From positions 8,604-72,603 of the forward strand of contig JAMQPK010000220.1 in NCBI GenBank assembly GCA_023717525.1: a DNA stretch of 64,000 nt, given 5' to 3'. The notes under the pieces were generated by a model. That model saw only the letters and a list, made by a program, of their open reading frames with translations. It ran no database searches and was not told the origin of the DNA. Positions within the stretch are counted from its first letter, which is position 1. Every line of letters begins with the position of its first letter. Shown here one piece after another: positions 23,989 through 39,554 of the stretch. The position numbers were made by a program, and so were the translations under genes. Source of the DNA: Vicinamibacterales bacterium (GTDB taxonomy: Bacteria > Acidobacteriota > Vicinamibacteria > Vicinamibacterales > JAMQPK01).

Positions 23989-24106
23989 GTCTGATTCCGA
24001 CGTGTCGCCGGTGTCTGCAACACTCGAAGGAGGCAATTTCGATACCAACCAATACTCTCTTTGTGAGATATCGGCCGCGCGCTAAGTATTCTTGAATGCT
24101 CGACTT

Positions 24107-24134
24107 GACGATGAACGATCGACGATCGGCGATC
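24107..24134. repeat. Degenerate heptamer tandem array (4 units)
   Basis: GACGATG AACGATC GACGATC GGCGATC. Confidence 0.6.
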
Positions 24135-24293
24135 GTCGCTGCCCTCGCGCACCGACGCTTTCGAATTTCAACTCACCTATTTGTAATTGGCGAAATCATT
24201 CTCACAATTTCAACCGTTCATGTATCGGTTCTGAAATCGCACGCACTGAACAAGTTGCGAGAATGTCCGCGCCGGCGGCCGACGGTCTCGGAA

Positions 24294-24309
24294 CGGCACA
24301 TATTCCGCA
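24294..24309 (+). promoter_or_regulatory. Putative sigma-54 promoter of the pseudokinase-PEGA operon
   Basis: CGGCACATATTCCGCA = GG-N10-GC; ATG 24322 follows the -12 C after 13 nt. Confidence 0.55.
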
Positions 24310-24321
24310 TATCCGCGAGGC

Positions 24322-26412
24322 ATGTCTCCACAGCCAGCTCCCGCTAGCGCCCCCGGGATCCTTCTTCCCGCCTTCGAAGACGGTCTCGGACGACGCTATC
24401 GTCCCGGCACACGCAGTTCCGAGACGCCGCCTGAAATTCTGTGCTTTCGCCACGAGCTGACTGATGTGCCCTCGTTTGAATTCTCGCTGCGCGAGCGCGT
24501 GGCGCGTCTTGCGGAATTCAGGCACCCCTATTTCGCCCGCATTCGCAAAGTCGATCGGCTGAGCGACGAACGCGGCACCGTGGCGCTGATGTCGGACTGC
24601 GCGCCGGGCACGCGACTCGTCGAAATTCTGGCGGCGGTCGAGCGGAGCGGTCCTGTTCTGAGCCTCGACGCCGCGCTCTCGCTCGTGCGGCAGCTGTCGT
24701 CGGCGTTGACGCTCTTGCACGATCACACGCAGGTGTCCCACGGCGCTGTCGCGGTGGAGCGTCTCATCATCACGCCGAATGCGCGCCTCTTCGTCGTCGA
24801 GCATGTGATCGGCGCGGCACTCGAGCAACTGCGGTACTCGCGCGAGCGCTACTGGAACGAACTCCGTGTGGCGCTGCCGATGTCCGTGGGTCTGCCGCAT
24901 TTCGACCAGCGTGCCGATCTGGCGCAGCTGGGCACGGTGGCGCTCTCGCTCATCCTCGGACGCCGCCTCGCGGACGACGAGTACCCAGGCGGTATCGAGG
25001 ATCTCATCGCCAGCGCCAGCGCGCGGGCGGCGGATGGCTCGCGCGAGCAATTGCCCACGGAGCTGCGTGACTGGCTCAGGCGGACGCTTCAGCTGGACAC
25101 GCGTCATTCGTACACGACACTCGCGGCTGCACAGACCGCACTCGAGCAGATGCTCTCGGCAGAGGGCAGATTCAACGCCGACGTCAGCGCGGTCGAGGAG
25201 TTTCTGACGGCGTATCAGGCTTCGCCGAAGCCCGCCGGGTCATCGATGCCCGTCGAACAGCCAGTCGCGAAGCCGAGTGTGGCGACTGTCCCGAGCGTGA
25301 TGAGGATCGAGCCGCCAAGCAGTGCGTTTAGTCCCGTTACCCAGATTGAAGAGGATGACGAGGAAGAAGAGGACGCAACCGCGGCGGACGACGAAACGGA
25401 CAGCAACGATGCGAGTGAGTGGCAGCCCGCCGCCTCGCGCAGAATGATGGCTGCCGGTTTCGTCCGCTACAAGTGGGTCGCGCTCGGGCTGGTTATCGCA
25501 CTGGCAGCCGGTGGCGCAGTGTTCGGCGCGCGTCGCATGTTCTCGGCGGCGCCCGTGGTGCCCACTGGCGCCATCACCATCGACACGAGCCCGACGGCGG
25601 GGCAGGTTGAAGTGGACGGTGTCGCTCGCGGCACGACGCCGCTGCGGCTCTCGTTGCCGGCCGGCGCCCATGTCCTGACGGTTCGCGGCGAAGGCAAGCC
25701 CCGGGTAATTCCCATCACGATCAAAGCCGATACCGAAATATCTCAGTACGTCGAGTTGCCCGCCGCGGCAGCCGCAACCGGTCAGGTGCAGATTCGCTCG
25801 GAGCCCAGCGGTGCGCGCGTGACCGTCGATGGAATTTCACACGGGATCACTCCTCTGACGGTCGCGGAGCTTGCCCCAGGCGAGCACACCGTGAAAGTCG
25901 ACAGCGACGTCGCTACGGTCACTCAGGCCGTCGTGATCGAGGCCGGGATTACGGCGTCGCTGGTGGTGCCGATGTCGGCCACGCAGGTTGGTCCGGCATC
26001 GGGTTGGGTGTCAATTTCCGCTCCGTTTGCGATGGATCTGTATGAACAAGGACGGATGCTCGGCAACAGCGGCATCGATCGCATCATGATGGCCGCCGGG
26101 AAGCACGACATCGAAATCTCGAACGAACCGCTCGGTTTCCGCGAGATGCGCACCGTGCAGGTGACGCCGGGCAAACTGACGGTCATCAGCGTGACGCTGC
26201 CAAAGGGCACGTTGTCACTGAACGCTGTCCCCTGGGCAAACGTGGTGATCGATGGAGAAAGCGTCGGGGAGACGCCAATCGGGAACCTGTCGCTTCCGAT
26301 CGGACCACACGAAGTCGTGTTTAGAAATCCGCAACTTGGAGAGCAGCGACGCGTGATCGTCGTCAACGCGACCTCGCCGGTGCGCTTCAGTATCGACATG
26401 GCGAAAAAATGA
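24322..26412 (+). CDS. Membrane-spanning Ser/Thr pseudokinase with C-terminal PEGA domains
   Basis: Hanks-kinase scaffold (RLAEFRHP..., QLSSALTLLH, DQRADLAQLG) but HRDxKxxN reads HGAVAVER and DFG reads EHV. Followed by an acidic linker, a TM helix and repeated (S.P.GA.V.VDG...G.TP....L..G.H) PEGA units. Confidence 0.8.
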   Translation: MSPQPAPASAPGILLPAFEDGLGRRYRPGTRSSETPPEILCFRHELTDVPSFEFSLRERVARLAEFRHPYFARIRKVDRLSDERGTVALMSDCAPGTRLVEILAAVERSGPVLSLDAALSLVRQLSSALTLLHDHTQVSHGAVAVERLIITPNARLFVVEHVIGAALEQLRYSRERYWNELRVALPMSVGLPHFDQRADLAQLGTVALSLILGRRLADDEYPGGIEDLIASASARAADGSREQLPTELRDWLRRTLQLDTRHSYTTLAAAQTALEQMLSAEGRFNADVSAVEEFLTAYQASPKPAGSSMPVEQPVAKPSVATVPSVMRIEPPSSAFSPVTQIEEDDEEEEDATAADDETDSNDASEWQPAASRRMMAAGFVRYKWVALGLVIALAAGGAVFGARRMFSAAPVVPTGAITIDTSPTAGQVEVDGVARGTTPLRLSLPAGAHVLTVRGEGKPRVIPITIKADTEISQYVELPAAAAATGQVQIRSEPSGARVTVDGISHGITPLTVAELAPGEHTVKVDSDVATVTQAVVIEAGITASLVVPMSATQVGPASGWVSISAPFAMDLYEQGRMLGNSGIDRIMMAAGKHDIEISNEPLGFREMRTVQVTPGKLTVISVTLPKGTLSLNAVPWANVVIDGESVGETPIGNLSLPIGPHEVVFRNPQLGEQRRVIVVNATSPVRFSIDMAKK

Positions 26413-27320
26413 AGACCACAATCATTCGTTCGGCCGTTCTCGCCGCTGTGCTTCTCGCAGGACTGTTGATGCCCCGGGGCGCATCCGCCCAGGACAGCAT
26501 CGCGGTGGCGCGAGACCTCTATGCATCGGCGGCGTATGAGGACGCGCTGGCCGTCCTCAGCAGAATCGACCCGAGCGCCCGTCCAGATCGCCTCGCGGTG
26601 AATCAGTACAAGTCGTTCTGTCTTGTTGCACTAAGGCGCACGGCGGAGGCCGAGCAGGCGATCGAGGCCGTGCTTTCGGACGAGCCTTCGTATAACCCCT
26701 CGGTCAGCGACGCATCGCCTCGGCTGCTCTCGATGTTTGCCAGCGTTCGGCAGCGTGTCCTGCCGTCGATTGCGCAGCAGCGCTACGCCCATGCGAAGGC
26801 CGCCTTCGATCGCGGGGAATTTGCCGTAGCCGCGGCCGAGTTCGACCAGGTGCTGAAGGTTCTCGAAGATGTCGATCTTGCCGAAGCTGCCCGGCGCCCG
26901 CCGTTGTCTGATATTCGCACCCTGACGGTCGGGTTTCGCGACCTGAGCGCCCGTGCGGCAGCCCCGCCGCCTCCTCCTGCGGCTCCGCCCGTTGAAGTGC
27001 CCGTGGCTCCGCCCCCGGCTGTCGCGGTTCCCTTGCGCGTCTACAACACGGGCGAATTGAATGTCATGCCACCGGCCATCCTTCGTCAGGATCTGCCGTC
27101 CCTGCCCCGCGATGTCGTCTTTCGCGGACAAGGCGTGCTCGAAGTCGTCATCAACGAAGCCGGCCTGGTTGAATCGGCCACGATGAGGACGCCGATTGAT
27201 CCGCGCTACGACCGCCTGGTTTTGGCGGCAACGAGAAACTGGAAGTACGAGCCCGCCACCGTCGTCGGAAAGCCGGTGAAGTTTCGAAAAATCATCGGCG
27301 TGAGGACAAAATCAGACTAG
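26409..27320 (+). CDS. Exported TPR/helical protein with Pro-rich linker and TonB C-terminal domain
   Basis: Signal peptide ending ASAQ; ARDLYASAAYEDAL helical repeats; PPPPP linker; G.LEVVINEAGLV...YDRLVLAATRNWKYEPA...GKPV. Confidence 0.8.
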   Translation: MKTTIIRSAVLAAVLLAGLLMPRGASAQDSIAVARDLYASAAYEDALAVLSRIDPSARPDRLAVNQYKSFCLVALRRTAEAEQAIEAVLSDEPSYNPSVSDASPRLLSMFASVRQRVLPSIAQQRYAHAKAAFDRGEFAVAAAEFDQVLKVLEDVDLAEAARRPPLSDIRTLTVGFRDLSARAAAPPPPPAAPPVEVPVAPPPAVAVPLRVYNTGELNVMPPAILRQDLPSLPRDVVFRGQGVLEVVINEAGLVESATMRTPIDPRYDRLVLAATRNWKYEPATVVGKPVKFRKIIGVRTKSD

Positions 27321-28639
27321 GCGAGCCGTTTCCAGAGGTGGTGGATCGGAAATCCCGCCGCGGCGATCGCCAGGCCGTAGAGCGGCGAGTAGTTGCCGAC
27401 CGCAATCTCGCCCCAGAGGATCGCGGCTAGCCCGATCGCTGTTCCTACGACGAAGCAGAGCGGCACCCACGGATAAGCTGGGGTTCTGTACGGTCTTGCC
27501 GCATCCGGCATCGTGCGTCGCAGTACGAAAACCGCCGCCACCGCCGCAATGAGCGCTGTCCATTCGACCACCACGAAGAACGTCGTCAGCGTGTCGAAGT
27601 CTCTCAGCACAAAGATCATGGCGATCGCCGCGGTGCCCTGAACCAGCAGCGCCGCCCAGGGCGTGGCCCAGCGGGGATGTACGTTTCCCAGAAACGAAAA
27701 CGTCAAGCCATCACGGGCCATCGCATAGGCGACACGTGGCTTGGCGAGAAAGCCACCATTCAGTGCACCGAACACGCTCGTCATGATGGCAAGCAGGATG
27801 AGCGTCCCGCTGAACGGGCCGGCGATCGACGTCATCACCGTGCGCGCGATGGCTTCCTTCTGCTGCGCCATCACATCGACCGGCATCATGTAGAAGTAGG
27901 CCAGGTTGGCGCCTATATAGAGCGTGACGATCGCCAGCATCCCGGCGATGATGATCCGTTTCATCAGCCGCTCAGGAGCGATGACCTCTCCGGCGATCAT
28001 GCTGACGGCGATCCAGCCGTCGTAGGTGAAGATCACCGAAGCCATTGCGCGGCCGAGGCCTTCACCCTGCACGGGCCCACCGGTGATCAGGTTGGACGCG
28101 CTGCCGTGTCCCAGCAGAAATGCCCCACCGATAATCGCCACGAGCGCGGTCACCTTGATCGCCGTGCACACACTGCCGACCGCGGCACCCACCTGAGCGC
28201 CGAGCAGATTGACGACCGTCAGCGTGACGAGGGCGGTGATGGCAATGCCCTGGACAGCGAACGGTCCCGGGCTGGTACCAAGCAGGTTCAGCAGAAATTC
28301 TGCGAAAACAATCGAGAGCGCGGCAGCGTTGGCTGGGGTCGTCACGACGACGTAGAGCCAGCCGAAGACGAACGCGGCCGCGTCGCCATAGGCCTCGCGG
28401 AGGAAAACGTAGACACCGCCGGGACGCGGCAATAGCGAACTGAGCTCTGCCACTGTAAGCGCGCCGCAGGTGCTAATCAGCCCAAAGGCCGTCCATAGGC
28501 CCATGATGACGAGCGGGTTCGGAACGAGGCCCGCAATGGTGGGAGGTTTACGGAAGATACCGCTGCCTATCGTGATGCCGACGATAAGGGCCGTTCCGCC
28601 CCAGAACCCGATGACTCTCCGGAGGTCTGTTCCCGTCAT
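27317..28639 (-). CDS. APC-family amino acid permease
   Basis: LRRVIG, IGSGIFRKP, AELSS..PRPGGVYVFLREAYG, FTYDGW, PRVAYAMARDG, RPYRTPAYP. Confidence 0.92.
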   Translation of the reverse strand: MTGTDLRRVIGFWGGTALIVGITIGSGIFRKPPTIAGLVPNPLVIMGLWTAFGLISTCGALTVAELSSLLPRPGGVYVFLREAYGDAAAFVFGWLYVVVTTPANAAALSIVFAEFLLNLLGTSPGPFAVQGIAITALVTLTVVNLLGAQVGAAVGSVCTAIKVTALVAIIGGAFLLGHGSASNLITGGPVQGEGLGRAMASVIFTYDGWIAVSMIAGEVIAPERLMKRIIIAGMLAIVTLYIGANLAYFYMMPVDVMAQQKEAIARTVMTSIAGPFSGTLILLAIMTSVFGALNGGFLAKPRVAYAMARDGLTFSFLGNVHPRWATPWAALLVQGTAAIAMIFVLRDFDTLTTFFVVVEWTALIAAVAAVFVLRRTMPDAARPYRTPAYPWVPLCFVVGTAIGLAAILWGEIAVGNYSPLYGLAIAAAGFPIHHLWKRLA

Positions 28640-28680
28640 GAAATTGGAGTATATTCGCGCCTCAAACCAAGGAGGGCCTC

Positions 28681-30243
28681 GTGAGCGAGCGATCACTCAG
28701 CCGCCGCGACCTGCTTCGCGGAGGAAGGGACGTGGGCGGCCTGCTGGCGTTGTCTGCGCTGCCACTCGAAGCGGCTCAGACGGCTCTTCGCAGTGCGCCA
28801 GACGTTTACCAGTCGATCGGCGTCCGGCCGCTCATAAACGCCCGCGGCACGTTCACGATCATCAGCGGCTCGCTCATGCTGCCCGAGGTCCGCGCCGCCA
28901 TGGACGCGGCCGCGAAACACTACGTGCACCTGGACGAACTGGCGGAAGCGGTCGGCGCTCGGCTCGCCGTGCTCACGAAGGCCGAATGGGGCCTCGTGAC
29001 GGCAGGCTGCAGCGCGGGCCTGACGCTTGCCACGGCCGCCTGTGTCGCCGGCGGCAACCCCGACCTCCACATCCGCGTACCGAATCTGGCGGGCTTCCCC
29101 AGGGACGAAGTCATCATCCCGAAGCATTCCCGCAACGTGTACGACGCGGCCCTGCGAACAGTCGGGGTCCGTGTGATCGAGGTCGAGACCGTTGCCGAGC
29201 TCGAGTCGGCGCTCGGCCCGCGCACCGCGATGATCTACATCATGGCGAGCCCGCGCGTCGACGCGAGTCCGCTCAACTTGAAGGCGATGGCTGCGATCGC
29301 GCAATCGAGAGGAGTCCCGATTCTCGTCGACGCGGCGGCGGAAGTTCTGACGATCCCCAACGTGCACCTCCAGAATGGCGCGTCGCTCGTGGGTTACAGC
29401 GGCGGCAAGTGCTTGCGCGGCCCGCAGACCGCTGGTTTGCTGCTCGGCCGAAAGGATCTCGTGAAGGCCGCATGGGTTCACAGCGCCCCGCATCACGGGC
29501 CCGGCCGTGCGCTGAAAGTCGGAAAAGAGGAAGCCATCGGGATGCTGATGGCCGTCGAGATGTGGGTCAAGCGGGATCACGACGCGGAATGGAAGCAGTG
29601 GACGTCAATGCTCGACCACGTTGACGGCCGCATGCGTCAAATTGCCGGCGTGACGACGGTGGTCAGCCAGCCGAATGGTCTTTCCAATCGGACACCGTCG
29701 CTGCGGGTGCTCTGGGATCCCGCGGTCCGCGGACTCACGAGCGATGCCGTCGTGCGCACGCTGCTCGAGACCGAACCTCGAATCGCAACGGCTGGAACAC
29801 GGCAGGACAAGCTGAGCGGAGTGTCCATCACGCCCTACATGATGTCCCCTGGAGACGAGAAGATCGTCGCCGATCGTTTGGCTGCCGTGCTCTCGGCGGG
29901 CCGGCCTTCTAGCGTGTCTGCCCGATCGTCGGCGCCGGTCGCCGATGTTACCGGCCGATGGGACGTGCGCATCGACTACGCGGCAGCTCGATCGACGCAC
30001 ACCCTCTACTTACGGCAGCGTGGCAGCGACATCGATGGCTCCCACCAGGGCGAGTTCATCACCCGCGACGTGTCGGGCACGATCGACGGCGACGCCATCC
30101 GGCTCCGCAGCGCATTCAGCGAGGAGCACGGCGATGCGATTACGTTCGTCTTTACGGGAAAATTGACTGGCAGCGCGATGTCCGGGGCGCTGGACATGGG
30201 CGAGTATCTCGGCGCCACGTGGACGGCCACGCGACGGGGATGA
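28681..30243 (+). CDS. SelA/DgaE-like PLP-dependent enzyme with a Tat signal and an extra C-terminal beta domain
   Basis: AGGAGG RBS; SRRDLLRG Tat motif; GVRPLINARGTFT, VDAAAE, PLP-Lys motif YSGGKCLRGPQ, KVGKEE; tail VTGRWDVRI...WTATR. Confidence 0.85.
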   Translation: MSERSLSRRDLLRGGRDVGGLLALSALPLEAAQTALRSAPDVYQSIGVRPLINARGTFTIISGSLMLPEVRAAMDAAAKHYVHLDELAEAVGARLAVLTKAEWGLVTAGCSAGLTLATAACVAGGNPDLHIRVPNLAGFPRDEVIIPKHSRNVYDAALRTVGVRVIEVETVAELESALGPRTAMIYIMASPRVDASPLNLKAMAAIAQSRGVPILVDAAAEVLTIPNVHLQNGASLVGYSGGKCLRGPQTAGLLLGRKDLVKAAWVHSAPHHGPGRALKVGKEEAIGMLMAVEMWVKRDHDAEWKQWTSMLDHVDGRMRQIAGVTTVVSQPNGLSNRTPSLRVLWDPAVRGLTSDAVVRTLLETEPRIATAGTRQDKLSGVSITPYMMSPGDEKIVADRLAAVLSAGRPSSVSARSSAPVADVTGRWDVRIDYAAARSTHTLYLRQRGSDIDGSHQGEFITRDVSGTIDGDAIRLRSAFSEEHGDAITFVFTGKLTGSAMSGALDMGEYLGATWTATRRG

Positions 30244-31496
30244 TCGTCGATCGTCGATCGTCCATCGTCCATCGTCGATCGTCCATCGTCGTGGTGATCG
30301 GCATGCTTGCGCTTGCCGCAACGCTGCCGGCGGCAGCGCCGAAGTACGACCTTGTACTGCGCGGCGGACATGTGATCGACCCGCGCAACGGGATCAGCGG
30401 CATCCGCGATGTCGCGGTGGCTGGCCGGACAATCGCCAGTGTGGCGGCCAGCATCAGCCCCGCCGATGCGTCGAAGGTGATTGATGTCTCGGGTTTGTAT
30501 GTGGTCCCCGGCCTGGTCGACATCCACACGCACGTCTATGCCGGGACGGGGGAGAAGGATTCCTACGCCGGCGACCTCAGCGTTTACCCGGACACGTTTG
30601 CGCTGCGTTCGGGTGTCACAACCGTTGCCGATGCCGGTAGTTCTGGCTGGCGGAACTTCGAAGACTTCAAACAGCGCATCATTGATCGCTCGACGACGCG
30701 CGTCCTGGCGTTTCTCAACATCGTCGGCCAGGGAATGCGCGGCGGCAAGTTCGAGCAGGATCTCGGCGACATGATGGTGCAACCGGCTGCCGATATGGCT
30801 CGGCGGTATCCTGGCGTCATCATCGGCATCAAGACCGCGCACTACTCAGGGCCGGAGTGGACGCCGGTCGACCACGCTGTCGAGGCCGGCACCCTTGCCG
30901 GTGTTCCCGTGATGGTCGATTTCGGCGCGAACAAGCCCGAGCGTCCGGTTGCCGATCTGTTGACGATGAAACTGCGGCCTGGCGACATCTATACTCATGT
31001 GTTTTCGGGATTACGCGGCGAGCTCGACGGCGCGGGACGCCTCAACCCGGGGCTGGCTGCGGGGCGGAAACGCGGTGTGCTGTTTGATTTGGGGCACGGT
31101 GCTCGAAGCTTCAGGTGGGACGTTGCCCAGGCGGCCATGAAGGAACAGTTTCTGCCGGACACGATTTCCACGGACCTGCATCTGGAGAGCATGAACGGCG
31201 CAATGAAGGACGTGTTGAACGTGATGAGCAAGTGTCTCGTGCTCGGGCTGACGGTCGATCAGATCGTGCAGCGCGCGACCTGGAACGCCGCGCGCGCGAT
31301 CAAGCAGGACGGTCTGGGGCACTTGTCCCCTGGCGCCGGCGCCGACATCGCGGTGCTCCGATTGGAACGCGGAAGCGTCGGGTTGCCCGATGCGTACGGC
31401 AGCAGGCTCGAAGGGGCTGGGCGCTTTCTGAACGAGCTGACGGTACGGGATGGGAAGATTGTCTACGATCTCAACGGCATTGCCATCAGGAGGTGA
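30240..31496 (+). CDS. Amidohydrolase/deacetylase-family metallohydrolase (dihydroorotase-like), exported
   Basis: ATGA overlap with the upstream gene; hydrophobic signal; LRGGHVIDP, PGLVDIHTH, GVTTVADAGS, IGIK, PGDIYTH, FDLGHG..SF, PDTISTDLH. Start may instead be GTG 30291 or ATG 30303. Confidence 0.85.
   Translation: MIVDRRSSIVHRRSSIVVVIGMLALAATLPAAAPKYDLVLRGGHVIDPRNGISGIRDVAVAGRTIASVAASISPADASKVIDVSGLYVVPGLVDIHTHVYAGTGEKDSYAGDLSVYPDTFALRSGVTTVADAGSSGWRNFEDFKQRIIDRSTTRVLAFLNIVGQGMRGGKFEQDLGDMMVQPAADMARRYPGVIIGIKTAHYSGPEWTPVDHAVEAGTLAGVPVMVDFGANKPERPVADLLTMKLRPGDIYTHVFSGLRGELDGAGRLNPGLAAGRKRGVLFDLGHGARSFRWDVAQAAMKEQFLPDTISTDLHLESMNGAMKDVLNVMSKCLVLGLTVDQIVQRATWNAARAIKQDGLGHLSPGAGADIAVLRLERGSVGLPDAYGSRLEGAGRFLNELTVRDGKIVYDLNGIAIRR
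30243..30291. repeat. Heptamer tandem array, 7 x ATCGTC(G/C)
   Basis: ATCGTCG ATCGTCG ATCGTCC ATCGTCC ATCGTCG ATCGTCC ATCGTCG, directly after ATG 30240. Confidence 0.92.
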
Positions 31497-31497
31497 C

Positions 31498-31968: not shown

Positions 31969-32426
31969 TCGAGCCAGGGAAAAAAGCACCGGCCTTCGCG
32001 CTGAAGGATCAGCGGGGCAAAACCCGCAAGCTCGCCGACTATGCAGGGCGACCGGTGATTCTGTACTTCTATCCGAAGGACGACACGCCAGGCTGCACGA
32101 AGCAGGCTTGCGCGTTTCAAGACAATCTGCCGCGATTCAAGGCGAGCAAGGCCGCGGTGCTTGGTGTGAGCATCCTCGACGAAGCCAGCAAAGCGCGGTT
32201 CGCCGAGAAGTACAAACTATCGTTCCCGCTACTGGCCGACGACGATCACGCCGTGGCGGAGAAGTACGGCGTCTGGCAGCAAAAATCGCTGTACGGCCGC
32301 TCGTTCATGGGCAACGTACGAACGACGTATCTGATTGGCGGCGATGGAAAAATTGCGAAACGCTGGGACAAGGTGAAAGTTGACGGCCACGCAGACGAGG
32401 TGCTCGAGGCCGTCAACGCGATCTAG
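31959..32426 (+). CDS. bcp: Thioredoxin-dependent peroxiredoxin Bcp
   Basis: APAFALKDQ, LYFYPKDDTPGCTKQAC, FPLLAD, RTTYLI. Confidence 0.92.
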   Translation: MPLIEPGKKAPAFALKDQRGKTRKLADYAGRPVILYFYPKDDTPGCTKQACAFQDNLPRFKASKAAVLGVSILDEASKARFAEKYKLSFPLLADDDHAVAEKYGVWQQKSLYGRSFMGNVRTTYLIGGDGKIAKRWDKVKVDGHADEVLEAVNAI

Positions 32427-32429
32427 GTC

Positions 32430-32621
32430 TTACTCGATGACGATCTTTGCGACGGCGGGCAGGCGGTCGACCTTGCCTGCCACGATTTCCATCTGAGCGA
32501 GCGTCGTTTTCTTGTGATCGCCGGCGACGCGCGGGATGCAGCCGCGCACGAGCTGCTGGGTTCTCAGGACGGCAATAGAGACGAATTCGAACGCATTGGA
32601 CGTCGCCGATCTATTGATCAC
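32430..32621 (-). CDS. rpoZ: RNA polymerase omega-subunit-like small protein (stand-alone)
   Basis: NAFEFVSIAVLRTQQL..G..P....K.TTLAQMEIVAGKV matches the omega pattern; GGGAG RBS before the GTG. Confidence 0.65.
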   Translation of the reverse strand: MINRSATSNAFEFVSIAVLRTQQLVRGCIPRVAGDHKKTTLAQMEIVAGKVDRLPAVAKIVIE

Positions 32622-32750
32622 TGATGGCTCCCTATCTTGGCTTCAATGAGGGCTGGAACCTGGCCCGGGCGAGACCGGGGATTGAGGGCAGAGCTCAGGA
32701 AAGCGAGTAAGACTCAAGTATACTTCGATATCCCGAGACGGAGCAGCATC

Positions 32751-33761
32751 ATGAAGACGCGAACGACACCGTACGCCTGGGCCGTCGCCTGCACGGTTGC
32801 AGCCACCCTTGCCGCCGTGTCGAGCGGGTTGTCTTCGCAGGGGCTCCAAGGCCCGAATCCCGACACGTCGTACCACCTTGGCCCCGATTCGCTCCCACAG
32901 GACGGTGTGCCAAAAGGGGAAATTCGCGGCCCGTTCAGCCTGTCCAGCCAGGCGTATCCGGGAACGCAGCATACGTATTGGGTCTACGTCCCGGCGCAGT
33001 ATCGATCTTCCGTGCCGGCGAGCCTGATGATTTTTCAGGACGGGCAGGCGTTCAAGAACCCGGACGGAAATCTTCGCGCGCACAACGTGATGGACAACCT
33101 GATTTACCGGCGCGAGATACCAGTGATGATCGGCGTGTTCATCAATCCCGGCCGCCGGCCCGACCAGCCGGAGCCCACGCCGCAGAACTGGGGCGATCGC
33201 GACACCAACCGTCCGACCGAATACAACACGCTCGATGACAAGTATGCGCGGGTCATTGTCGATGAGCTCATGCCCGTGCTGCATAAGGACTTCAACATCT
33301 CGAACGATCCGGAGCGTCACGGCATCGGAGGCGCCAGCTCTGGCGCCATCGCCGCGTTTACGGTCGCGTGGCAGCGTCCCAACGATTTTCGCAAAGTGCT
33401 GAGCATCGTCGGCAGCTTCGTGAATCTGCGCGGTGGCCACGCGTATGCCGACATCGTCCAGGAGAGCGAGAAGAAGCCCATCCGGATCTATTTGCAGGAC
33501 GGCCGGAACGACAATCGAGGTACGGGGCGCGGCGGCGAGTACGACGAGACACGCGACTGGTTCCTTCAGAACGTGCGCCTCATGAAGGCGCTGACCGGCA
33601 AGGGCTACGACGTGAACTACTCGTGGGGACTGAATCGCCACGACCAGGCGATGGGCGGTGCTATTCTGCCGGACATGATGCGCTGGTTGTGGCGCGATCA
33701 TCCGGTTTCTGTGGATGCGAACGACGCTGTCGAGCGGTCGTTCAATGAACCTGGCAAATAA
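32751..33761 (+). CDS. Exported Fes/IroE-type alpha/beta esterase
   Basis: Signal peptide; [32 protein letters not shown] nucleophile elbow, FRKVLS.VGSF. Confidence 0.85.
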
Positions 33762-33776
33762 CGAACGGGAGAACTT

Positions 33777-35840
33777 ATGTCGCGTCGAACACTAGGTGTG
33801 ATGCTGCCGGCGATTCTGCTTGGGTGCCTGTTTATTCGTCCATCGACGCCTGTATCGGGACAGAGTGGTGTGACGGGCGGCGAATGGCCCCATTGGGGCG
33901 GCGACCATGGGAACACCAAGTACTCGCCGCTCGATCAGATCAATCGCGACAACGTGAAAAATCTGCGGATCGCCTGGCGCTGGAAATCCGAAAACTACGG
34001 AGCGCGGCCGCAGAACAACATGGAAGCCACGCCGCTGATGATCGGCGGCGTGCTCTACACGACCGCCGGTGTCCGCCCCAACGTCGTCGCTATCGACGGC
34101 GCGACGGGCGAAACGCTCTGGAGCTATCGCATCGATGAAGGGGAGCGCGGCGACATCGCGCCGCGAAGCGTCTCTCGCGGCGTCGAATACTGGACCGATG
34201 GAAAGCAGTCGCGCATCATTCTGGTGACGCGCGGCTATCGTCTGGTGTCGCTCGATGCAAAGACCGGTTTGCCCGATCCCGCGTTCGGGCGAGGCGGCGT
34301 GGTCGACTTGTACGAGGATTTCGATCAGCCCGCGCCGAAAAATGGCGTCATCAGCTCCACCTCTCCAGCCGTCGTCGTCAGAAACGTGGTCATCATGGGC
34401 GCCGCGATGGTCGGGGGCACGGCGCCGCGATCGAAGGAAAACACGAAAGGCTACATTCGTGGCTTCGACGTGCGCACGGGCAAGCGTTTGTGGACGTTCC
34501 ACACCGTTCCGAATCCCGGGGAATTCGGCAACGATACCTGGCTGAACGATTCGTGGGCGTACACGGGGAACACGGCTGTCTGGTCGCCGTTCTCGGCCGA
34601 CGACGATCTTGGTTACGTCTATCTTCCTGTCGAATCGGCAACGGGCGATTTCTACGGTGGACACCGACCTGGGAATAACCTTTTTGCGGGCAGCCTTGTG
34701 TGTCTGGATGCGCGGACCGGGAAGCGCATCTGGCATCAGCAGCTCGTGCACCACGACATCTGGGACTACGACCTGGCGTCGCCGCCGACGCTCATCAACA
34801 TTACCGTCAACGGCAAGCCGATTCGTGCCGTCGCGCAGACGACCAAGTGGGGCTATCTGTTTGCCTTCGATCGCGTGAACGGCACGCCGGTGTGGCCGAT
34901 TGAAGAGCGCCGCGTGGAGGCAGGCACGGTTCCGAGCGAATGGTACTCGCCTACCCAGCCGCACCCAACCAAGCCGGCACCTTACGATCGTCAAGGGGTG
35001 AGCGAACAGGATCTCATCGACTTCACACCAGAACTGAACGCTGAAGCACGCGCGATCATCAAGGAATACAAGATCGGCCCGCTCTTCACGCCGCCAATCG
35101 TCGGAGGCACCGATGGATTGCGGGGAACGCTGCAGATTCCGGCGGCGCAAGGTGCAGCGCTATGGCAAGGCGCAGCGTGGGATCCGGAAACCAACATGCT
35201 GTACGTGCCGTCTGTTACCAACATGACCAACAACGCCTTGCAGCCTGGCACCGGACGCTCGGACATGAACTTCATTGGCGGTGGCGGCGGTGGCGGCGGA
35301 CGGGGCGCACCTCCACCAGAAGAAGGCGCCGGCGGCGCACGCCGCGGCGGCGGCGGTGGCCGTGGCGGCGCGGCACCCACTCTCGGTCCTGGTGTTGGCC
35401 GTGGTCCCTGGGGTATCGGTCCGCAGGGCCTTCCGCTCGTAAAGCCACCCTACGGAAGAATCACGGCGTACAACATGAACACGGGTGATATCGCGTGGCA
35501 GGTTGCCAACGGCGACACCTACGAGTGGATCAAGACGCACCCAGCCCTCAAAGGGTTGACTATTCCGCGCACCGGGCGCGCCGACGAAGGCGGCATCGTC
35601 GTGACCAAGACGCTGGCCTTTGCCGGGCAAGGCTGCGGGCTGTTCCGAGGCGGCGGCGGCGGCGGCAACATGTTCGTCGCCTACGACAAGGCGACGGGTG
35701 CTGTTGTGCACGAAATGCCGCTGCCGGCCAACACGTGCGGGAATCCGATGACCTACATGGTGAACGGGAAGCAGTACCTCGCCGTGTCGATCGGCGCTCA
35801 GAACTTTCCCGCGGAGGTCATCGCGCTGACGCTTCCGTAG
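33777..35840 (+). CDS. PQQ-dependent (glucose/quinate-type) dehydrogenase, periplasmic
   Basis: YSPLDQINRDNVKNLRIAW, EATPLMIGG, RGVEYW, GYIRGFDVRTG, HHDIWDYD, SPTQP, KPPYGRITA, PMTYMVNGKQY. Confidence 0.9.
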   Translation: MSRRTLGVMLPAILLGCLFIRPSTPVSGQSGVTGGEWPHWGGDHGNTKYSPLDQINRDNVKNLRIAWRWKSENYGARPQNNMEATPLMIGGVLYTTAGVRPNVVAIDGATGETLWSYRIDEGERGDIAPRSVSRGVEYWTDGKQSRIILVTRGYRLVSLDAKTGLPDPAFGRGGVVDLYEDFDQPAPKNGVISSTSPAVVVRNVVIMGAAMVGGTAPRSKENTKGYIRGFDVRTGKRLWTFHTVPNPGEFGNDTWLNDSWAYTGNTAVWSPFSADDDLGYVYLPVESATGDFYGGHRPGNNLFAGSLVCLDARTGKRIWHQQLVHHDIWDYDLASPPTLINITVNGKPIRAVAQTTKWGYLFAFDRVNGTPVWPIEERRVEAGTVPSEWYSPTQPHPTKPAPYDRQGVSEQDLIDFTPELNAEARAIIKEYKIGPLFTPPIVGGTDGLRGTLQIPAAQGAALWQGAAWDPETNMLYVPSVTNMTNNALQPGTGRSDMNFIGGGGGGGGRGAPPPEEGAGGARRGGGGGRGGAAPTLGPGVGRGPWGIGPQGLPLVKPPYGRITAYNMNTGDIAWQVANGDTYEWIKTHPALKGLTIPRTGRADEGGIVVTKTLAFAGQGCGLFRGGGGGGNMFVAYDKATGAVVHEMPLPANTCGNPMTYMVNGKQYLAVSIGAQNFPAEVIALTLP

Positions 35841-35857
35841 GTCGCGTGAACGCTGTC

Positions 35858-37393
35858 TCAGCCTGCCGGTTCGAGGTCGGTGGAGAAGACTGTCTCGCCG
35901 GCGAGGTTGACCAGGCGTACGGTCATCACACGTGTTGCGGCGCTGATGCGGACGAGACCAAAAAACTGCAGTCCTCCCAATGGGCCGGGATATGAGGGTA
36001 GGCCGGCTGGTACTCCATTGAAGCGGACTTCCGGGCCGAAGGTGTTATCGAGCGCCGCAGGCGCACCGGTTCCTGCATGGATAGGTCCGGCGACAAATTC
36101 CCAGAACGGCAGGAAATCCTTGAACTGCGCGCGCTCCGGGTCGTAGTGATGCGCGGCGGCGTAATGGACGTCGGCAGTGACCCACACGACGTTCCTGATC
36201 TGGCGCTGTCGAATGAAGCGCAGAAGGTCGGCGACTTCCAACTCGCGCCCCAGAGGCTCTCCGTTTCCGTTGGCGAACGCCTCGAAGTTGTCGCCGTCTC
36301 GTACGATCAGCCCGATCGGCAGATCGCTGGCGATCACTTTCCACGCCGCCTTCGACGAGGCCAGGCGGCCCTTCAGCCACTCGATCTGAGCCGGACCTGC
36401 GAGCTGCGACTCAGCGGTTCGCGTCGCCTGTCGATTTGTCGTGTTGGGCCCCCGGTAGGTCCGGAGATCGAGCGTGAAGACATCGAGCAGCGGCCCGTAC
36501 GGACACTGGCGAAAGATCGGAGGTCGGTCGCCTGGTTCCAGGCGAATGGGCACATGTTCGAGGAACGCGCGCCTCGCGTTCGAGCTCAGTGCCGCAACGC
36601 TCTTGATTGTGTACCGGTCGTCGCCTTCGAGGGTCTGCTGCGGGTACCAGTTATTGCGGACTTCGTGATCGTCCCACAGCGCTATCTGGGGTACCTCCGC
36701 ATTGAATCGACGAACGTGCTCGTCGAGCAGGTTATAGAGGTGGTTTCCGCGGAACTCGTCGAGCGTTTCGGCAACCTTCGACTTCGCGGGCGTGACGACG
36801 TTCTTCCAGATGCCGCCATCCGGCAGCCGCACCTCTTCCACCAGCGGCCCATCCGCATAGACTGTGTCGCCGCAATGAATGAAGAAGTCCGGTTGCGCGC
36901 GCCGCATCGTCTCGAACATCTTCAAGCCGCCCCACTGGAGATTGATGCCCCAGCCCTGACCGACAGTGTCTGCCGCCCACGCGAAGCTGAGGTCGCCCGG
37001 CCGCGCCGGCGCAGAAAGAAAACTGCCCTGTGAGGGCAGGCTCTGATTGCGCGAATCGCGAAGATCCTCGAAACGAACGCGGTAGAAGATCCGCTGGCCT
37101 GACGGAAGGCCTGAAAGGTCGATCCGGGCCGTGAAGCCCGATTCTGCGCGAGCCACCGAACCGGCCGCTCGCTGAATGTTCTGGAATGACTCGGTCGTCG
37201 ACCACTCGACCAGCATTCGGGAGGCTCGATCGCTGCGGCTCCAGACGATTGCGCGGTTGCCGGTGACGTCACCGGCGGCTGTGCCGTAGCTGATTGAGGG
37301 TCGTGAGGATTCCTGGCGGAGCACAGCAGGGGCAAATGCAAATGCCCCTGCTGCACGTGTTGTCGTCGAAAGAAAACGGCGCCTGCCGATCAA
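35858..37393 (-). CDS. phoD: Alkaline phosphatase D, Tat-exported
   Basis: GRRRFL Tat motif; PDFFIHCGDTVYAD, WDDHEVRNNW, LDLRTYR, TADVHY. Confidence 0.92.
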   Translation of the reverse strand: MIGRRRFLSTTTRAAGAFAFAPAVLRQESSRPSISYGTAAGDVTGNRAIVWSRSDRASRMLVEWSTTESFQNIQRAAGSVARAESGFTARIDLSGLPSGQRIFYRVRFEDLRDSRNQSLPSQGSFLSAPARPGDLSFAWAADTVGQGWGINLQWGGLKMFETMRRAQPDFFIHCGDTVYADGPLVEEVRLPDGGIWKNVVTPAKSKVAETLDEFRGNHLYNLLDEHVRRFNAEVPQIALWDDHEVRNNWYPQQTLEGDDRYTIKSVAALSSNARRAFLEHVPIRLEPGDRPPIFRQCPYGPLLDVFTLDLRTYRGPNTTNRQATRTAESQLAGPAQIEWLKGRLASSKAAWKVIASDLPIGLIVRDGDNFEAFANGNGEPLGRELEVADLLRFIRQRQIRNVVWVTADVHYAAAHHYDPERAQFKDFLPFWEFVAGPIHAGTGAPAALDNTFGPEVRFNGVPAGLPSYPGPLGGLQFFGLVRISAATRVMTVRLVNLAGETVFSTDLEPAG

Positions 37394-37396
37394 CGC

Positions 37397-37466
37397 TGGT
37401 CCTTGGTCCTTCGTCCTTCGTCCTTGGTCCCGACGATGGACGATGGGCCATCGACGATGGACGATG
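37397..37466. repeat. Bipartite heptamer array (10 units) able to fold as an imperfect hairpin
   Basis: TGGTCCT TGGTCCT TCGTCCT TCGTCCT TGGTCCC | GACGATG GACGATG GGCCATC GACGATG GACGATG; fills most of the aldolase-phoD spacer. Confidence 0.9.
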
Positions 37467-37479
37467 GACGGCCGTCAGC

Positions 37480-38550
37480 TTAGTTCGTCGGTTTCGCCGC
37501 CCAGGGGCCGACTTCCGGCTTGCCCTGCGTGTTGGCCAGCGGACCGAGCTCGCCCTGCACACCACGCGTGATTGCGGCCGTTTCGCTGGCGTTCTGGAAG
37601 CAGGTGAAGTCCGGCCGGTCGCGCCATGCGAACGGACCGCAGAGACGCTTGCCTGCGCCGATGGCGGCGTCGTGCACGATATTGATGATGCGCTCGTAGT
37701 CGGGCGTGCCCTGTGCGTACCCAGAGAAGTTGCCCAGGTCGCCGCTTGCGGCGAAGAGCGCCGTCACGCCGGGGATCTTCGCAATCTCATGCGCATTCTT
37801 CACGCCTTCGAGCGTCTCGATCATCAGAATGAGCACGATATTGTCGTTGATCGTCTGGCGATAGCCACCGGGGACGCCGCCGAACATCGCGGGATCGAAC
37901 GCCTGCCCGCCGCCGTTGCTGCGACGGCCGAGAGGCGGGAAGTAGGTCCAGTTGCGCGCGGCCGTGGCTTCTTCAACTGTGTCAACCGTGGGCACGACGA
38001 CTACCAGCGCGCCGGCATCGACCGCGTGCTGGATTTCTTTTTCGTCGGTGTACGCGACGCGTGTGCCAGGCACCGCTTTCGCGTGCGGGCAGGTGCGCCA
38101 CAAACGTGCGGCTGCCGACCAGTCACGATTGTCGTGCTGCATCTCGGTCCAGATGAAGTCGTAGCCGGCGTTGGCCATCGCGCAGTAGGTGCTCGCGTCG
38201 GTCGCGCCGAAGACCGTGCCGCCCGTCACCTTCTGGCCCGCCATCATCTTCAGCTTGACCGGGTTCCAGATCTTGGAGCCCGCCGGTGGAGCGAAGGCTG
38301 AACCGTACTTCCAGGCATCCGAATTGAACGGACCGGTATTCTGGGCGCCAGCCGGCGGAGTCTGTTTGGCGTTGCTGTCCTTGCCCGCGGGGGCGGCGAG
38401 CGGAAACTGCATCTTCCCGGCATCCGGGTTATTGGCGTAGGGGTCGGCGCCAGCCGGGCCACCCTGTCGCGCCGGAGCCTGTCCCTGTGCGCTGAACGTG
38501 GCGATTCCTAACGCTGTGACGGCCGTCACAGCAAAAAGCAGACGTTTCAC
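37480..38550 (-). CDS. HpcH/HpaI-family class II aldolase with an N-terminal signal peptide
   Basis: AAGGAGG RBS before GTG 38550; signal MKRLLFAVTAVTALGIATFSAQG; GYDFIWTEMQH, VVVPTVDTVEEA, FPPLGRRS, MIETLEGVKNAHEIAKIPGV, SGDL. Confidence 0.85.
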   Translation of the reverse strand: MKRLLFAVTAVTALGIATFSAQGQAPARQGGPAGADPYANNPDAGKMQFPLAAPAGKDSNAKQTPPAGAQNTGPFNSDAWKYGSAFAPPAGSKIWNPVKLKMMAGQKVTGGTVFGATDASTYCAMANAGYDFIWTEMQHDNRDWSAAARLWRTCPHAKAVPGTRVAYTDEKEIQHAVDAGALVVVVPTVDTVEEATAARNWTYFPPLGRRSNGGGQAFDPAMFGGVPGGYRQTINDNIVLILMIETLEGVKNAHEIAKIPGVTALFAASGDLGNFSGYAQGTPDYERIINIVHDAAIGAGKRLCGPFAWRDRPDFTCFQNASETAAITRGVQGELGPLANTQGKPEVGPWAAKPTN

Positions 38551-38627
38551 TTCAAACCTCCTTATGAGTGCGACTGTTCGCAGAGGGAGAATATGCACCC
38601 GTACGTCCCCTGAGGGCAAGCGTTACC

Positions 38628-38963
38628 TTACGGTTGTGCGTCGAAGAATTTCAGGGCCATCGTGCCGTGTGTCGTGGCTGCACCGGCACGCAACGCGGCG
38701 GCGAGCAGCGCCGATTCGACGAGCTCTTCGCGCGTCGCGCCGGCCGCCTTGGCCGCTTTTGAATGGGCCTCGATGCAGTACGGGCACATCTGGGCGCATG
38801 CGACCGCGACCGCGATCAGCTCTCGATACTTTCTGGGGATGGCGCCGTCGGTTCGCGCCGTGATTTTTTCGAGATTCAACCACGCCTCGTAGTCGGCAGG
38901 GGCGAGTTTCCTCATTTCTCTGAGAAGACGAATGTCAGCTGGATCGTGAAAGTGGTCGCTCAA
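38628..38963 (-). CDS. Carboxymuconolactone decarboxylase / AhpD-family protein
   Basis: GAIPRKYRELIAVAVA...CPYCIEAH..AAKAAGATREELVE; GGAGG RBS. Confidence 0.88.
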   Translation of the reverse strand: MSDHFHDPADIRLLREMRKLAPADYEAWLNLEKITARTDGAIPRKYRELIAVAVACAQMCPYCIEAHSKAAKAAGATREELVESALLAAALRAGAATTHGTMALKFFDAQP

Positions 38964-39017
38964 ATGAAGGCCTCCGGGCAGAGGATACCAATCTACTGCG
39001 GAAGACGCACGATGAAG

Positions 39018-39045
39018 TTAGTTATTGGTCGTCAGTCGTTGGTCG
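39018..39045. repeat. Degenerate heptamer array upstream of the four-helix-bundle gene
   Basis: TTAGTTA TTGGTCG TCAGTCG TTGGTCG. Confidence 0.7.
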
Positions 39046-39050
39046 TGCGC

Positions 39051-39066
39051 GGGCAGGGTTCTTGCC
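39051..39066 (+). promoter_or_regulatory. Putative sigma-54 promoter of the four-helix-bundle gene
   Basis: GGGCAGGGTTCTTGCC = GG-N10-GC with TTGC; ATG follows the -12 C after 12 nt, at about +1; no RBS. Confidence 0.55.
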
Positions 39067-39077
39067 GTGCTCTCGAC

Positions 39078-39461
39078 ATGATCGCAAAGACTCTCATCGA
39101 TTTACAGGTCTATCAGAAAGCGCTCGTCGGATCGTTCGCAGTTTCTGCACTCTTGAAGCACCCCCAGCTGCGCAAAGACCGCAAACTGAGCGAACAACTT
39201 GGCGCAGCCGCCGATTCGGTGTGCAGCAACATCGCCGAAGGGTTCGCACAGCAGTCCGACCGGAAATTCACGCTCTATCTCTTTGTTGCACGAGGATCGG
39301 CCAACGAGGTACGCGCGCATCTGGCTGTGGCCCGCAACCGAGACCATATCACCGCCGAGGAACTTTCAGAACTGAGCCGTACCTACGACGAGATCGGGCG
39401 GATGTTGACGCGCTTCATCCAGTATCTGCGCCGGTCGGATCGCCGGGAGCAGGCAAAGTAG
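39078..39461 (+). CDS. Four-helix-bundle protein (23S rRNA intervening-sequence protein / Avd-like family)
   Basis: DLQVYQKA, L..QL..AADSVCSNIAEGF, F..YL.VARGSANEVRAHL..A..R..I, I.RML..FI.YL. Confidence 0.92.
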   Translation: MIAKTLIDLQVYQKALVGSFAVSALLKHPQLRKDRKLSEQLGAAADSVCSNIAEGFAQQSDRKFTLYLFVARGSANEVRAHLAVARNRDHITAEELSELSRTYDEIGRMLTRFIQYLRRSDRREQAK

Positions 39462-39487
39462 GTTCTTGGTCCTTTGTCCCCGGTCTC
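39460..39487. repeat. Degenerate heptamer array starting at the stop codon of the four-helix-bundle gene
   Basis: AGGTTCT TGGTCCT TTGTCCC CGGTCTC; shares the TGGTCCT unit with the 37397 array. Confidence 0.65.
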
Positions 39488-39554
39488 AGCCGGCCCGCCG
39501 CCAACGCCGGGTTCTTCATGCGGCCTGACTGTTGTGACGGATACAATCTCCCGG

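Follow-up and report, generated by a model that had tools for sequence, protein, structure and literature searches.

Inverted tandem-repeat arms around PF05635 four-helix-bundle genes in a Vicinamibacterales genome: candidate cassettes with dispersed gene-free hairpins

Why should five short tandem arrays of 7-nt units and a small four-helix-bundle gene occur at the gene boundaries of a single bacterial contig? The question is raised by a 64,000-nt stretch, here called the window, of a Vicinamibacterales bacterium (Acidobacteriota; assembly GCA_023717525.1, contig JAMQPK010000220.1, positions 8,604 to 72,603 of the forward strand). A preliminary description, made from the letters of the window alone, had reported five heptamer arrays with a shared GTC/GAC core and had linked them to a gene of the PF05635/TIGR02436 family. 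The five arrays were confirmed in the sequence at the places given (four by Tandem Repeats Finder (TRF), the fifth by a lag-7 scan). All of them lie at gene boundaries as judged from open reading frames (ORFs) and Pfam, and two bracket the four-helix-bundle gene at 39078-39461 (PF05635, 88.8 bits). Comparison with the rest of the genome suggests that each PF05635 gene, the window copy excepted, forms a cassette with its inverted arms and has cognate gene-free hairpins elsewhere. The same architecture occurs from Acidobacteriota to Xanthomonadaceae, Bacteroidota and Chloroflexota.

PF05635 genes lie between inverted arms of their own repeat

The window's own assembly (genome G000; 3.78 Mb in 242 contigs, 62.5% G+C) contained 17 PF05635 matches over the cut-off, all of them open frames, whereas E. 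coli in the control panel had none. Of these 17 genes, 12 had arrays on either side at a distance of no more than 200 nt, compared with 79 of 2707 other genes (Fisher 5e-15), and the enrichment that a genome-wide period-7 scan had been expected to reveal was thus borne out. The upstream flank approximates the reverse complement of the downstream flank in 16 of the 17, with complementarity scores (16-35.5) above the 99th percentile (12.5) of 600 control genes, for which the median was 8.5. The unit differs at every one of the 17 genes (e.g. GTGACGA/TCGTCAC, GGGCAGA/TCTGCCC and AGTAAGA/TCTTACT), and the unit of each is also dispersed through the genome as gene-free hairpins. As each gene stands between arrays of its own unit, it occupies the “loop” of a hairpin of one family. 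On these figures it is scarcely credible that ordinary simple-sequence repeats merely happen to lie near a four-helix-bundle gene. With an expected density of ∼1 array per 5 kb in this genome, several in 15 kb would be unsurprising; the both-side enrichment and the flank complementarity nevertheless contradict such an account, as do the pile-up at gene ends, the rare-period coincidences and the cross-genome unit specificity described below.

When one gene per family was simulated using coarse families (1 mismatch), at least 15 distinct families in 16 random draws had a probability of 0.0057, with family assignment ambiguous for two pairs. The one-family-per-gene point is therefore carried by three PF05635 genes outside the window that have unusual arm units:

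G000:C44:72567, PF05635 gene with the 8-nt arm unit GGTTCTAG
G000:C211:6494, PF05635 gene with the 9-nt arm unit GGTGCGGGA
G000:C144:59939, PF05635 gene with the ∼10-nt arm unit ACGTGGGAGA

Dispersed hits of these units numbered 41, 27 and 12, respectively, versus 0 for reversed controls, and the units belong to the leading intergenic families at periods 8, 9 and 10. A broader tally, in which 509 of 725 dispersed arrays fell within 1 mismatch of a PF05635-flank unit, was rejected as evidence because ∼30 units x 14 rotations x 22 neighbours fit many random heptamers.

These pairings bear on the possibility that host replication slippage or another factor makes the hairpins, and that PF05635 genes are selfish ORFs that home into their loops, as into the tips of rRNA helices, without reading the repeats. 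PF05635 genes are not the only small genes with inverted arrays on either side (further cases are a GNAT gene, one resembling a lipoprotein gene, a hydrolase fragment and small membrane peptides), and both the 79 other genes with arrays on either side and the arrays found in genomes lacking PF05635 (see below) would fit such homing. We nevertheless consider it improbable, given that no two of the 17 genes share a unit, that abundant families have not been hit repeatedly, and that the rare 8-, 9- and 10-nt units match particular genes. The AGTG core shared by homologues across phyla, the GTC core shared within the window subfamily, and the background array density of PF05635-free relatives speak against it as well.

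The state of the genes themselves bears on another alternative, namely that the elements are selfish RNA or DNA resembling intervening sequences, with long imperfect stems that serve as RNase III substrates and an ORF that is dispensable, decaying cargo. One further PF05635 copy, the 18th, is an internally deleted pseudogene between GGGCTGA/TTAGCCC arrays (G000:C109:14321-14834), and the window copy is without one arm; both would be expected of cargo, and the authors of a study of the Coxiella intervening sequence favour the RNA over its S23p protein (PMC4990558). That all 17 copies above the Pfam cut-off are open frames, that the family is conserved across phyla at 45-67% identity and that paralogues have diversified together with their units makes a dispensable ORF highly improbable.

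A genome-wide population of arrays and hairpins

Across the genome, TRF returned 751 period-7 arrays versus 167 of period 6 and 246 of period 8; at scores of at least 50 the corresponding counts were 225, 4 and 34. A lag-7 scan located 522 arrays, while the shuffled genome yielded 16 and lag 8 yielded 46; heptamer arrays are thus commoner than chance would predict. Their mean coding fraction was 0.315 compared with ∼0.89 genome-wide, both values being rough because our own gene caller is crude and misses the PF05635 gene and a peroxiredoxin gene of the window. Most arrays fall into ∼17-20 main unit families, with 4-6 positions of the unit nearly fixed and 1-2 free. This combination of varying units and a kept core fits binding or folding better than fresh slippage, as had been argued in the preliminary description.

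Among array pairs less than 3 kb apart, 134 were inverted and 32 direct. The gaps of the inverted pairs form two classes, one below 100 nt (91 pairs) and one of 400-600 nt (11 pairs), the latter corresponding to the PF05635 cassettes. The non-redundant short-gap hairpins (n=86) share a layout consisting of a G+T-rich array of ∼33 nt, a short loop and a complementary A+C-rich array, and their arm lengths peak at 29-35 nt with a mode of 33. A G+T-rich left arm was observed in 71 of 86 hairpins and 45 of 54 cassettes; since the reverse order is rare, the hairpins are not arbitrary palindromes.

Measured from the stop codon of the preceding gene, most hairpins start between -2 and +20 nt. This position would suit a regulon in which the hairpins are cis-acting RNA sites at gene ends (for processing, stability or translation) and each PF05635 protein is a trans-acting RNA-binding regulator of a set of sites of its own, autoregulated by way of its flanks, the sites having spread by ordinary regulon evolution rather than being driven by the protein. 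Counts per spacer class, in the order co-directional, convergent, divergent, point the same way (33, 23, 17 and 6 versus expected 28.8, 24.6, 12.7 and 12.9). So do the RNA binding of the homologous Avd protein (bioRxiv 10.1101/2023.10.23.563531), the RNase III site at the first heptamer of the Coxiella intervening sequence (PMC4990558) and the post-transcriptional regulation proposed for TAACTGA repeats (MacGregor 2015, PMC4679880). However, the spacer-class bias of the hairpins was not significant (chi-square p 0.12). The neighbours of the window arrays have no common function (phosphatase, aldolase-like, amidohydrolase and glycosyltransferase genes by Pfam), and in close relatives one and the same site can hold arrays of another unit family or no array at all. 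We therefore regard a regulon as unlikely, though to be taken seriously.

Two further kinds of arrangement were noted within this population. In one case (G000:C233:63100-63274), the outer arms of two adjacent GAAAGTG-family hairpins have a tRNA-like sequence between them. Inverted TTGGTCG/CGACCAA arrays also surround inserts of 210-270 nt that contain short hydrophobic ORFs and no PF05635 (C137:83408-83737, C184:11908-12190 and C233:22210-22539).

Relatives, other phyla and Xanthomonadaceae

PF05635 was found in 18 of the 21 genomes searched (relatives and G000). Of the 30 loci in relatives, 24 were flanked by arrays at both ends, 4 at one end and 2 at neither. A scan of one genome per species yielded 80 loci from groups that include Acidobacteriota, Verrucomicrobiota, Planctomycetota, Bacteroidota, Pseudomonadota, Chloroflexota, Bacillota, Fibrobacter and Patescibacteria; an upstream array was present at 54 of them, a downstream array at 59 and both at 42, with 36 automatically classed as inverted. 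These arrays cluster tightly around the gene, with 48 in the 100 nt before it and 55 in the 100 nt after it, and ∼1-2 per 100 nt beyond 400 nt. The association of arrays with PF05635 genes proposed for the window is thus seen genome-wide, in relatives and across phyla. Over the pooled loci (n=202), both arrays were present in 126, of which 105 were inverted and 9 direct. The direct geometry originally described must accordingly be given up as the general form, which consists of inverted arms; the window copy is the single atypical case among the 17. Homologues from different phyla, with 45-67% protein identity, share an AGTG core in their units. Cultured non-pathogens with such cassettes are Pseudoxanthomonas wuyuanensis (L094/L225), Zoogloea oryzae (L055/L226) and Thiohalocapsa halophila (L085/L223).

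Array density and unit identity were also compared between genomes. Three same-order genomes without PF05635 had array densities of 0.9, 1.0 and 1.5 per 100 kb, compared with 7.5, 13.8 and 14.2 in three carriers. Searches with (GGGGACC)x3, (GAGGATT)x3 and (AGTGGTT)x3 gave 179, 202 and 19 hits in three unrelated genomes, each being the genome whose PF05635 gene the unit flanks; elsewhere the same three units gave at most 31 hits, at control level or belonging to another family, with 0-5 for (AGTGGTT)x3. In genome G004, the PF05635 arm units GGGATTA, ATGGCAG, CAGCTAT, GCCCATY and AGTCGRA recur within a 400 kb sample. GGGATTA is the commonest family there, where a PF05635 gene is flanked by it, and is rare in G000, which has no such gene.

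Among Xanthomonadaceae, 31 of 61 genomes carried PF05635. Arrays stood on both sides of 22 of 30 loci, and in 16 of these the units were of the GGGAATC/GGGATTC type (GGGAWTC). At least 20 hits to (GGGAWTC)x3 were obtained in 23 of the 31 PF05635-positive genomes versus 9 of the 30 negative ones (Fisher 0.0008).

Inheritance and turnover

Units agreed within 1 mismatch in 35-44% of protein pairs that were at least 60% identical, compared with 1-3% of pairs below 50% identity, and gene and arms are inherited jointly and diverge in step. One orthologous cassette has remained at a single locus in 7 species, where the sequence on either side of it is 70-82% identical; the units of this cassette differ (GGTAGCT, GGTAGCC, GGTAGGT) and its arms are complementary in each.

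Hairpins themselves turn over quickly, as can be seen at a site directly after the stop codon of an HpcH-like gene, at 37.4 kb of the window. G000 has a composite hairpin there and G086, the closest relative searched (HpcH 91% identical), has none. Among further species, four have an ATGGCAG hairpin at this site, five have AGTCGxx arrays and four have neither. The G000 element is a clean insertion of ∼80 nt relative to G086, with no obvious target duplication in this single case. This indel, and the different unit families found at one site in different species, point to gain and loss of hairpins.

The window cassette and arrays

The features of the window that bear on the question are as follows:

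24107-24135, no strand assigned: solo heptamer array, GACGATG AACGATC GACGATC GGCGATC (TRF period 7, 4.1 copies, score 37)
30242-30291, no strand assigned: heptamer array ATCGTCG/ATCGTCC of the CGATCGT family (TRF 7.1 copies, score 79)
37397-37430, no strand assigned: left arm, TGGTCCT/TCGTCCT, of a gene-free composite hairpin (TRF TGGTCCT 4.9 copies, score 54; 5 cores)
37432-37470, no strand assigned: right arm, GACGATG/GGACGAT, of the same composite hairpin (TRF GACGATG 5.6 copies, score 57)
39025-39046, plus strand: upstream (left) arm of the PF05635 cassette, TTGGTCG TCAGTCG TTGGTCG (TRF TTGGTCG 3.1 copies, score 30)
39052-39066, plus strand: GGCA-N7-TGCC motif, downstream of the left arm and 15-25 nt ahead of the start codon
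39078-39461, plus strand: PF05635/TIGR02436 four-helix-bundle gene, 127 aa (Pfam 88.8 bits, cut-off 33.8)
39459-39487, plus strand: downstream array GGTTCTT GGTCCTT TGTCCCC GGTC, overlapping the PF05635 stop codon (below TRF score 30)

We interpret these as one decayed cassette that has lost its right arm, one gene-free composite hairpin and two solo arrays. The arrays fall into three sister unit families (CGATCGT/TCGTCCA, GGTCCTT and GGTCGTT), whose PF05635 genes (on contigs C174, C35 and C105) are 39-41% identical; a fourth gene, on C187, is 51% identical. The GTC/GAC core noted originally is real, and is accounted for by the GTC core that units of the window PF05635 subfamily have in common: all homologues of the window protein are accompanied by such units (TGGTCGT, CAGTCGG, AGAGTCC, TAGTCGC and CATCGTC).

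The product of the window gene also matches TIGR02436 (85.1 bits, cut-off 24) and is related in sequence to PDB entries 2GSC (XCC0516, E 1.1e-7) and 2RLD (E 0.0015), each of which has 5 chains. PF05635 is its sole Pfam family, with no HUH/Y1 (IS200/IS605-like) transposase, and PADLOC assigned no defence family to the 2 PF05635 proteins submitted. The flank-complementarity score of this gene is 8.0, at the control median, which makes it the only exception among the 17. The downstream array, located at 39459-39479 by the lag-7 detector (at least 11 of 14 matches), matches the left arms of the GGTCCTT family and does not complement the upstream arm. In G088, a homologue with 60% identity is preceded by six TGGTCGT units and followed by seven GACCAAC units; since it keeps both arms, the window cassette has evidently retained the left arm and lost the right. 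The GGCA-N7-TGCC motif recurs in ∼17 of 22 homologous loci of the window subfamily (L299-L321, read by eye), and its fold alone is not significant (z -1.47). It resembles what we take to be the -24/-12 promoter consensus of sigma-54, and rpoN is present in the genome.

The 37.4 kb element lies between the stop of the HpcH-like gene (37480) and a PhoD-like gene. It had been described as a direct join of two unit types resembling an “empty site”; that it is gene-free, and absent from G086, agrees with this description, but the arms form an imperfect hairpin, with TCGTCC pairing with GGACGA, rather than a direct join. Its predicted fold reaches -41.6 and -41.5 kcal/mol on the two strands, and 0 of 200 shuffles were equally stable. 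The right arm is of the right-arm type of the CGATCGT/TCGTCCA family, and its unit is that of the downstream arm of the PF05635 gene on contig C105. A scan of the window for the intrinsic terminator consensus, a G+C-rich stem with a T run after it, did not call the hairpin, and a reading as terminator was rejected on that basis. A small terminator-like stem with a T run was noted beside it on the minus strand (37396-37379); as this site is conserved in G086, the hairpin was inserted between the stop codon and the terminator-like site.

Four DNA metagenome runs (X1-X4) were compared with the window. Summed contig depth in the bin 37370-37483 was 838, 207, 1837 and 42, respectively, with flanks of ∼11 in X1, and the metagenome contigs had diverse, low-agreement loose ends at 37397 and 37430. 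The depth spike and the loose ends together indicate that the TGGTCCT array is a dispersed repeat with very many contexts in these metagenomes. No joint across the 37.4 kb hairpin or the PF05635 cassette was found among the contigs of the four runs.

The array at 24107-24135 is placed in a divergent intergenic region by ORFs and Pfam. Its units are those of the CGATCGT family, for which the gene on C105 is the cognate PF05635 gene, and it folds no better than shuffles (z -0.89). The array at 30242-30291, which begins at an ATGA stop/start overlap after the gene at 28681-30243, matches dozens of further sites in G086 and G087 and likewise shows no fold beyond shuffles (z -0.06). At the orthologous positions in G086 the first array is missing, the second is present as a variant at the same junction, and the PF05635 cassette is absent. 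Rfam (E up to 1) gave 0 matches in window positions 23500-40500.

Between positions 30240 and 30350 of the window, the second array shares its reading frame with an ATG overlapping the stop codon of the preceding gene (ATGA), and this frame reads MIVDRRSSIVHRRSS..., leading into the signal-peptide-like start of an amidohydrolase. The orthologue in G086 (L322 2780-2850) keeps the frame, with 36 versus 37 codons before P-x-Y-D, and for this reason the array may be translated.

Relation to known systems

In REPIN/RAYT systems, a single-copy gene is flanked by inverted short repeats, and hairpin-forming copies of the repeat, tens to hundreds in number, are scattered between genes; there is one gene per repeat family, and the repeats can outlive the gene. 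PF05635 cassettes are alike in that a single gene stands between inverted copies of a genome-dispersed repeat. They differ in that the protein is a four-helix bundle without a known catalytic motif instead of an HUH tyrosine transposase, and in that the arms are tandem 7-10 nt arrays of ∼33 nt, where a REPIN is a single palindrome of ∼20-25 nt. Inverted arms also recall miniature inverted-repeat transposable elements, which come with a target-site duplication; at the single insertion compared (G000 versus G086) no duplication was observed, as with REPINs.

The 23S rRNA intervening sequences (IVS) of Leptospira and Coxiella encode proteins of the same family, in an ORF of ∼120 aa between terminal inverted sequences able to form a long stem. 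Flanks of this kind surround 16 of the 17 G000 genes, the window copy being the exception. Unlike IVS, the G000 cassettes lie between protein-coding genes and not in an rRNA helix, and there are 17 of them per genome, each with its own unit and with tens of gene-free hairpin copies. The Coxiella IVS has three tandem GACAGAT heptamers, variable in copy number, just upstream of the S23p ORF, and these were handled as a local detail (PMC4990558).

Further heptamer repeats are known from cyanobacteria as short tandemly repeated repetitive (STRR) sequences, and the G000 arrays are STRR-like in consisting of tandem 7-nt units at many intergenic loci per genome. Published heptamers, which include the GGGAATC of Xanthomonas and GGGGAYT of Nostoc (Rehm 2015, PMC4692102) and the TAACTGA repeats of Beggiatoaceae, Cyanobacteria and Bacteroidetes (MacGregor 2015, PMC4679880), are intergenic and tandem, occur many times per genome with variable copy number, and have a function stated to be unknown. 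The Xanthomonas repeat is highly enriched, unexplained, and forms 70-75 convergent (inverted) pairs (PMC4692102). Arms of the same published type border the PF05635 genes at 16 of 30 loci in our Xanthomonadaceae sample, the only one in which this likeness was checked. The accessible portions of PMC4679880 and PMC4692102 make no mention of S23p, intervening sequences or four-helix proteins; their supplementary tables of flanking genes, which lay outside this check, could list PF05635. A literature search with paywalled papers and supplements outside its scope found no paper linking heptamer arrays with PF05635, apart from what is said locally of Coxiella. Already published are heptamer repeats with their inverted pairs and unexplained excess, as well as the IVS protein and its likeness to Avd.

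Avd, the accessory protein of diversity-generating retroelements (DGRs), has a fold homologous to PF05635. It is described as a basic barrel formed by a pentamer, “similar to S23 ribosomal proteins”, which contacts RNA and for which there is an RNA element that Avd binds (bioRxiv 10.1101/2023.10.23.563531). The G000 loci are unlike those of DGRs in having no adjacent reverse transcriptase and no template or variable repeats. None of the 17 genes has a reverse transcriptase next to it (RVT_1 was found only on contig C48, which is without PF05635), and a DGR was ruled out for this reason.

Do PF05635 proteins read their own arms?

We put the odds only slightly better than even (about 0.55) that a PF05635 oligomer reads its own arms and has a role in the maintenance or spread of the repeats, any effects on RNA being secondary. 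The gene with its arms would then be an IVS-like cassette, and the gene-free hairpins its non-coding copies. The oligomer, as an Avd homologue, would recognise the units repeated in its own arms, either as single strands or folded into a hairpin, and this recognition might cause hairpins to be maintained, homogenised or spread. Each hairpin family with its single PF05635 gene would thus resemble a REPIN population with its RAYT, without a recognisable nuclease. Effects on mRNA 3' ends would likely be side effects or a later co-option.

Ring proteins such as TRAP read tandem short repeats in RNA, and the idea of an oligomer reading a periodic array is common to both cases. The preliminary description had gone further in assigning one unit to each subunit, and this part does not stand. 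Arrays of period 8, 9 and 10 average ∼4.0, 3.7 and 3.7 units, compared with 4.7 for period 7, so it is the arm length (∼33 nt) that is conserved and not the number of units; unlike in TRAP, unit number is not tied to subunit number. A pentamer occupying five units was considered because 174 of 334 period-7 arrays have 4.05-5.05 copies, and was rejected since periods 8-10 contradict it.

These unit counts are one of several observations that weigh against a protein reading and maintaining its arms. To our knowledge, PF05635 has no catalytic activity. The variable positions of the two arms of a hairpin are not mirrored (identity 0.82 in the best register, which was chosen as the maximum, versus 0.79 after a shift of 7), which means that the arms do not keep exact base pairing. 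Shared descent alone suffices to explain the covariation of protein and unit, and the cassette fixed at one locus in 7 species argues that cassettes, for which movement by recombination between arrays had been suggested, are not highly mobile. The cross-genome tests overstate, as kin genomes are not independent, and the coding fractions given above are approximate. The authors of the Coxiella study concluded that S23p is probably not expressed (PMC4990558). Families may also occur without a gene: in the 400 kb sample of G004, AACTGAx and GAAAGTA lacked a PF05635 gene at the 11 loci examined. What speaks most against strict dependence on the gene is that 9 of the 30 PF05635-negative Xanthomonadaceae genomes had 47-264 hits to the (GGGAWTC)x3 pattern and no PF05635 even at E 0.01. 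Unless their cassettes are unassembled, arrays thus persist without the gene in these genomes:

G031, G042, G050, G059, G066, G068, G071, G072 and G076, array-rich PF05635-negative Xanthomonadaceae genomes

A more general proposition is that PF05635 oligomers are sequence-specific readers of tandem 7-10 nt repeats and form with their arrays a hitherto unrecognised class of transposase-free, cognate protein-repeat elements found across phyla. We hold this tentatively, at somewhat less than even odds. If it were true, 23S rRNA intervening sequences and the Avd of DGRs would be special cases or offshoots, the heptamer excess in Xanthomonas (GGGAATC), cyanobacteria and Beggiatoaceae would be the footprint of these elements, and a protein-to-heptamer recognition code could be read from hundreds of natural gene-arm pairs.

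Implications

We know of no function for PF05635/TIGR02436 outside DGRs. The pairing described here would join this very widespread family to a second loose end, the over-represented heptamers of bacteria, for whose excess there was “no mechanism evident” and a function that “remains to be elucidated” (PMC4679880, PMC4692102). The association of PF05635 with arrays may explain why such repeats are so common, and the layout of one gene and one repeat family makes both questions directly testable. For annotators, it would provide a rule by which hundreds of intergenic elements per genome can be recognised, and it would account for contig breaks and depth spikes at arrays in metagenome assemblies. 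It would also hint at the origin of protein-coding rRNA intervening sequences, and the naturally occurring pairs of protein and repeat would form a library that might yield a code for nucleic-acid recognition.

Other repeats in the window

Tandem repeats of a quite different length, with a 156-nt unit, were found at window positions 56907-57340 and 58477-59036 (2.8 and 3.6 copies, 72-73% matches). Both arrays probably represent repeated protein domains.

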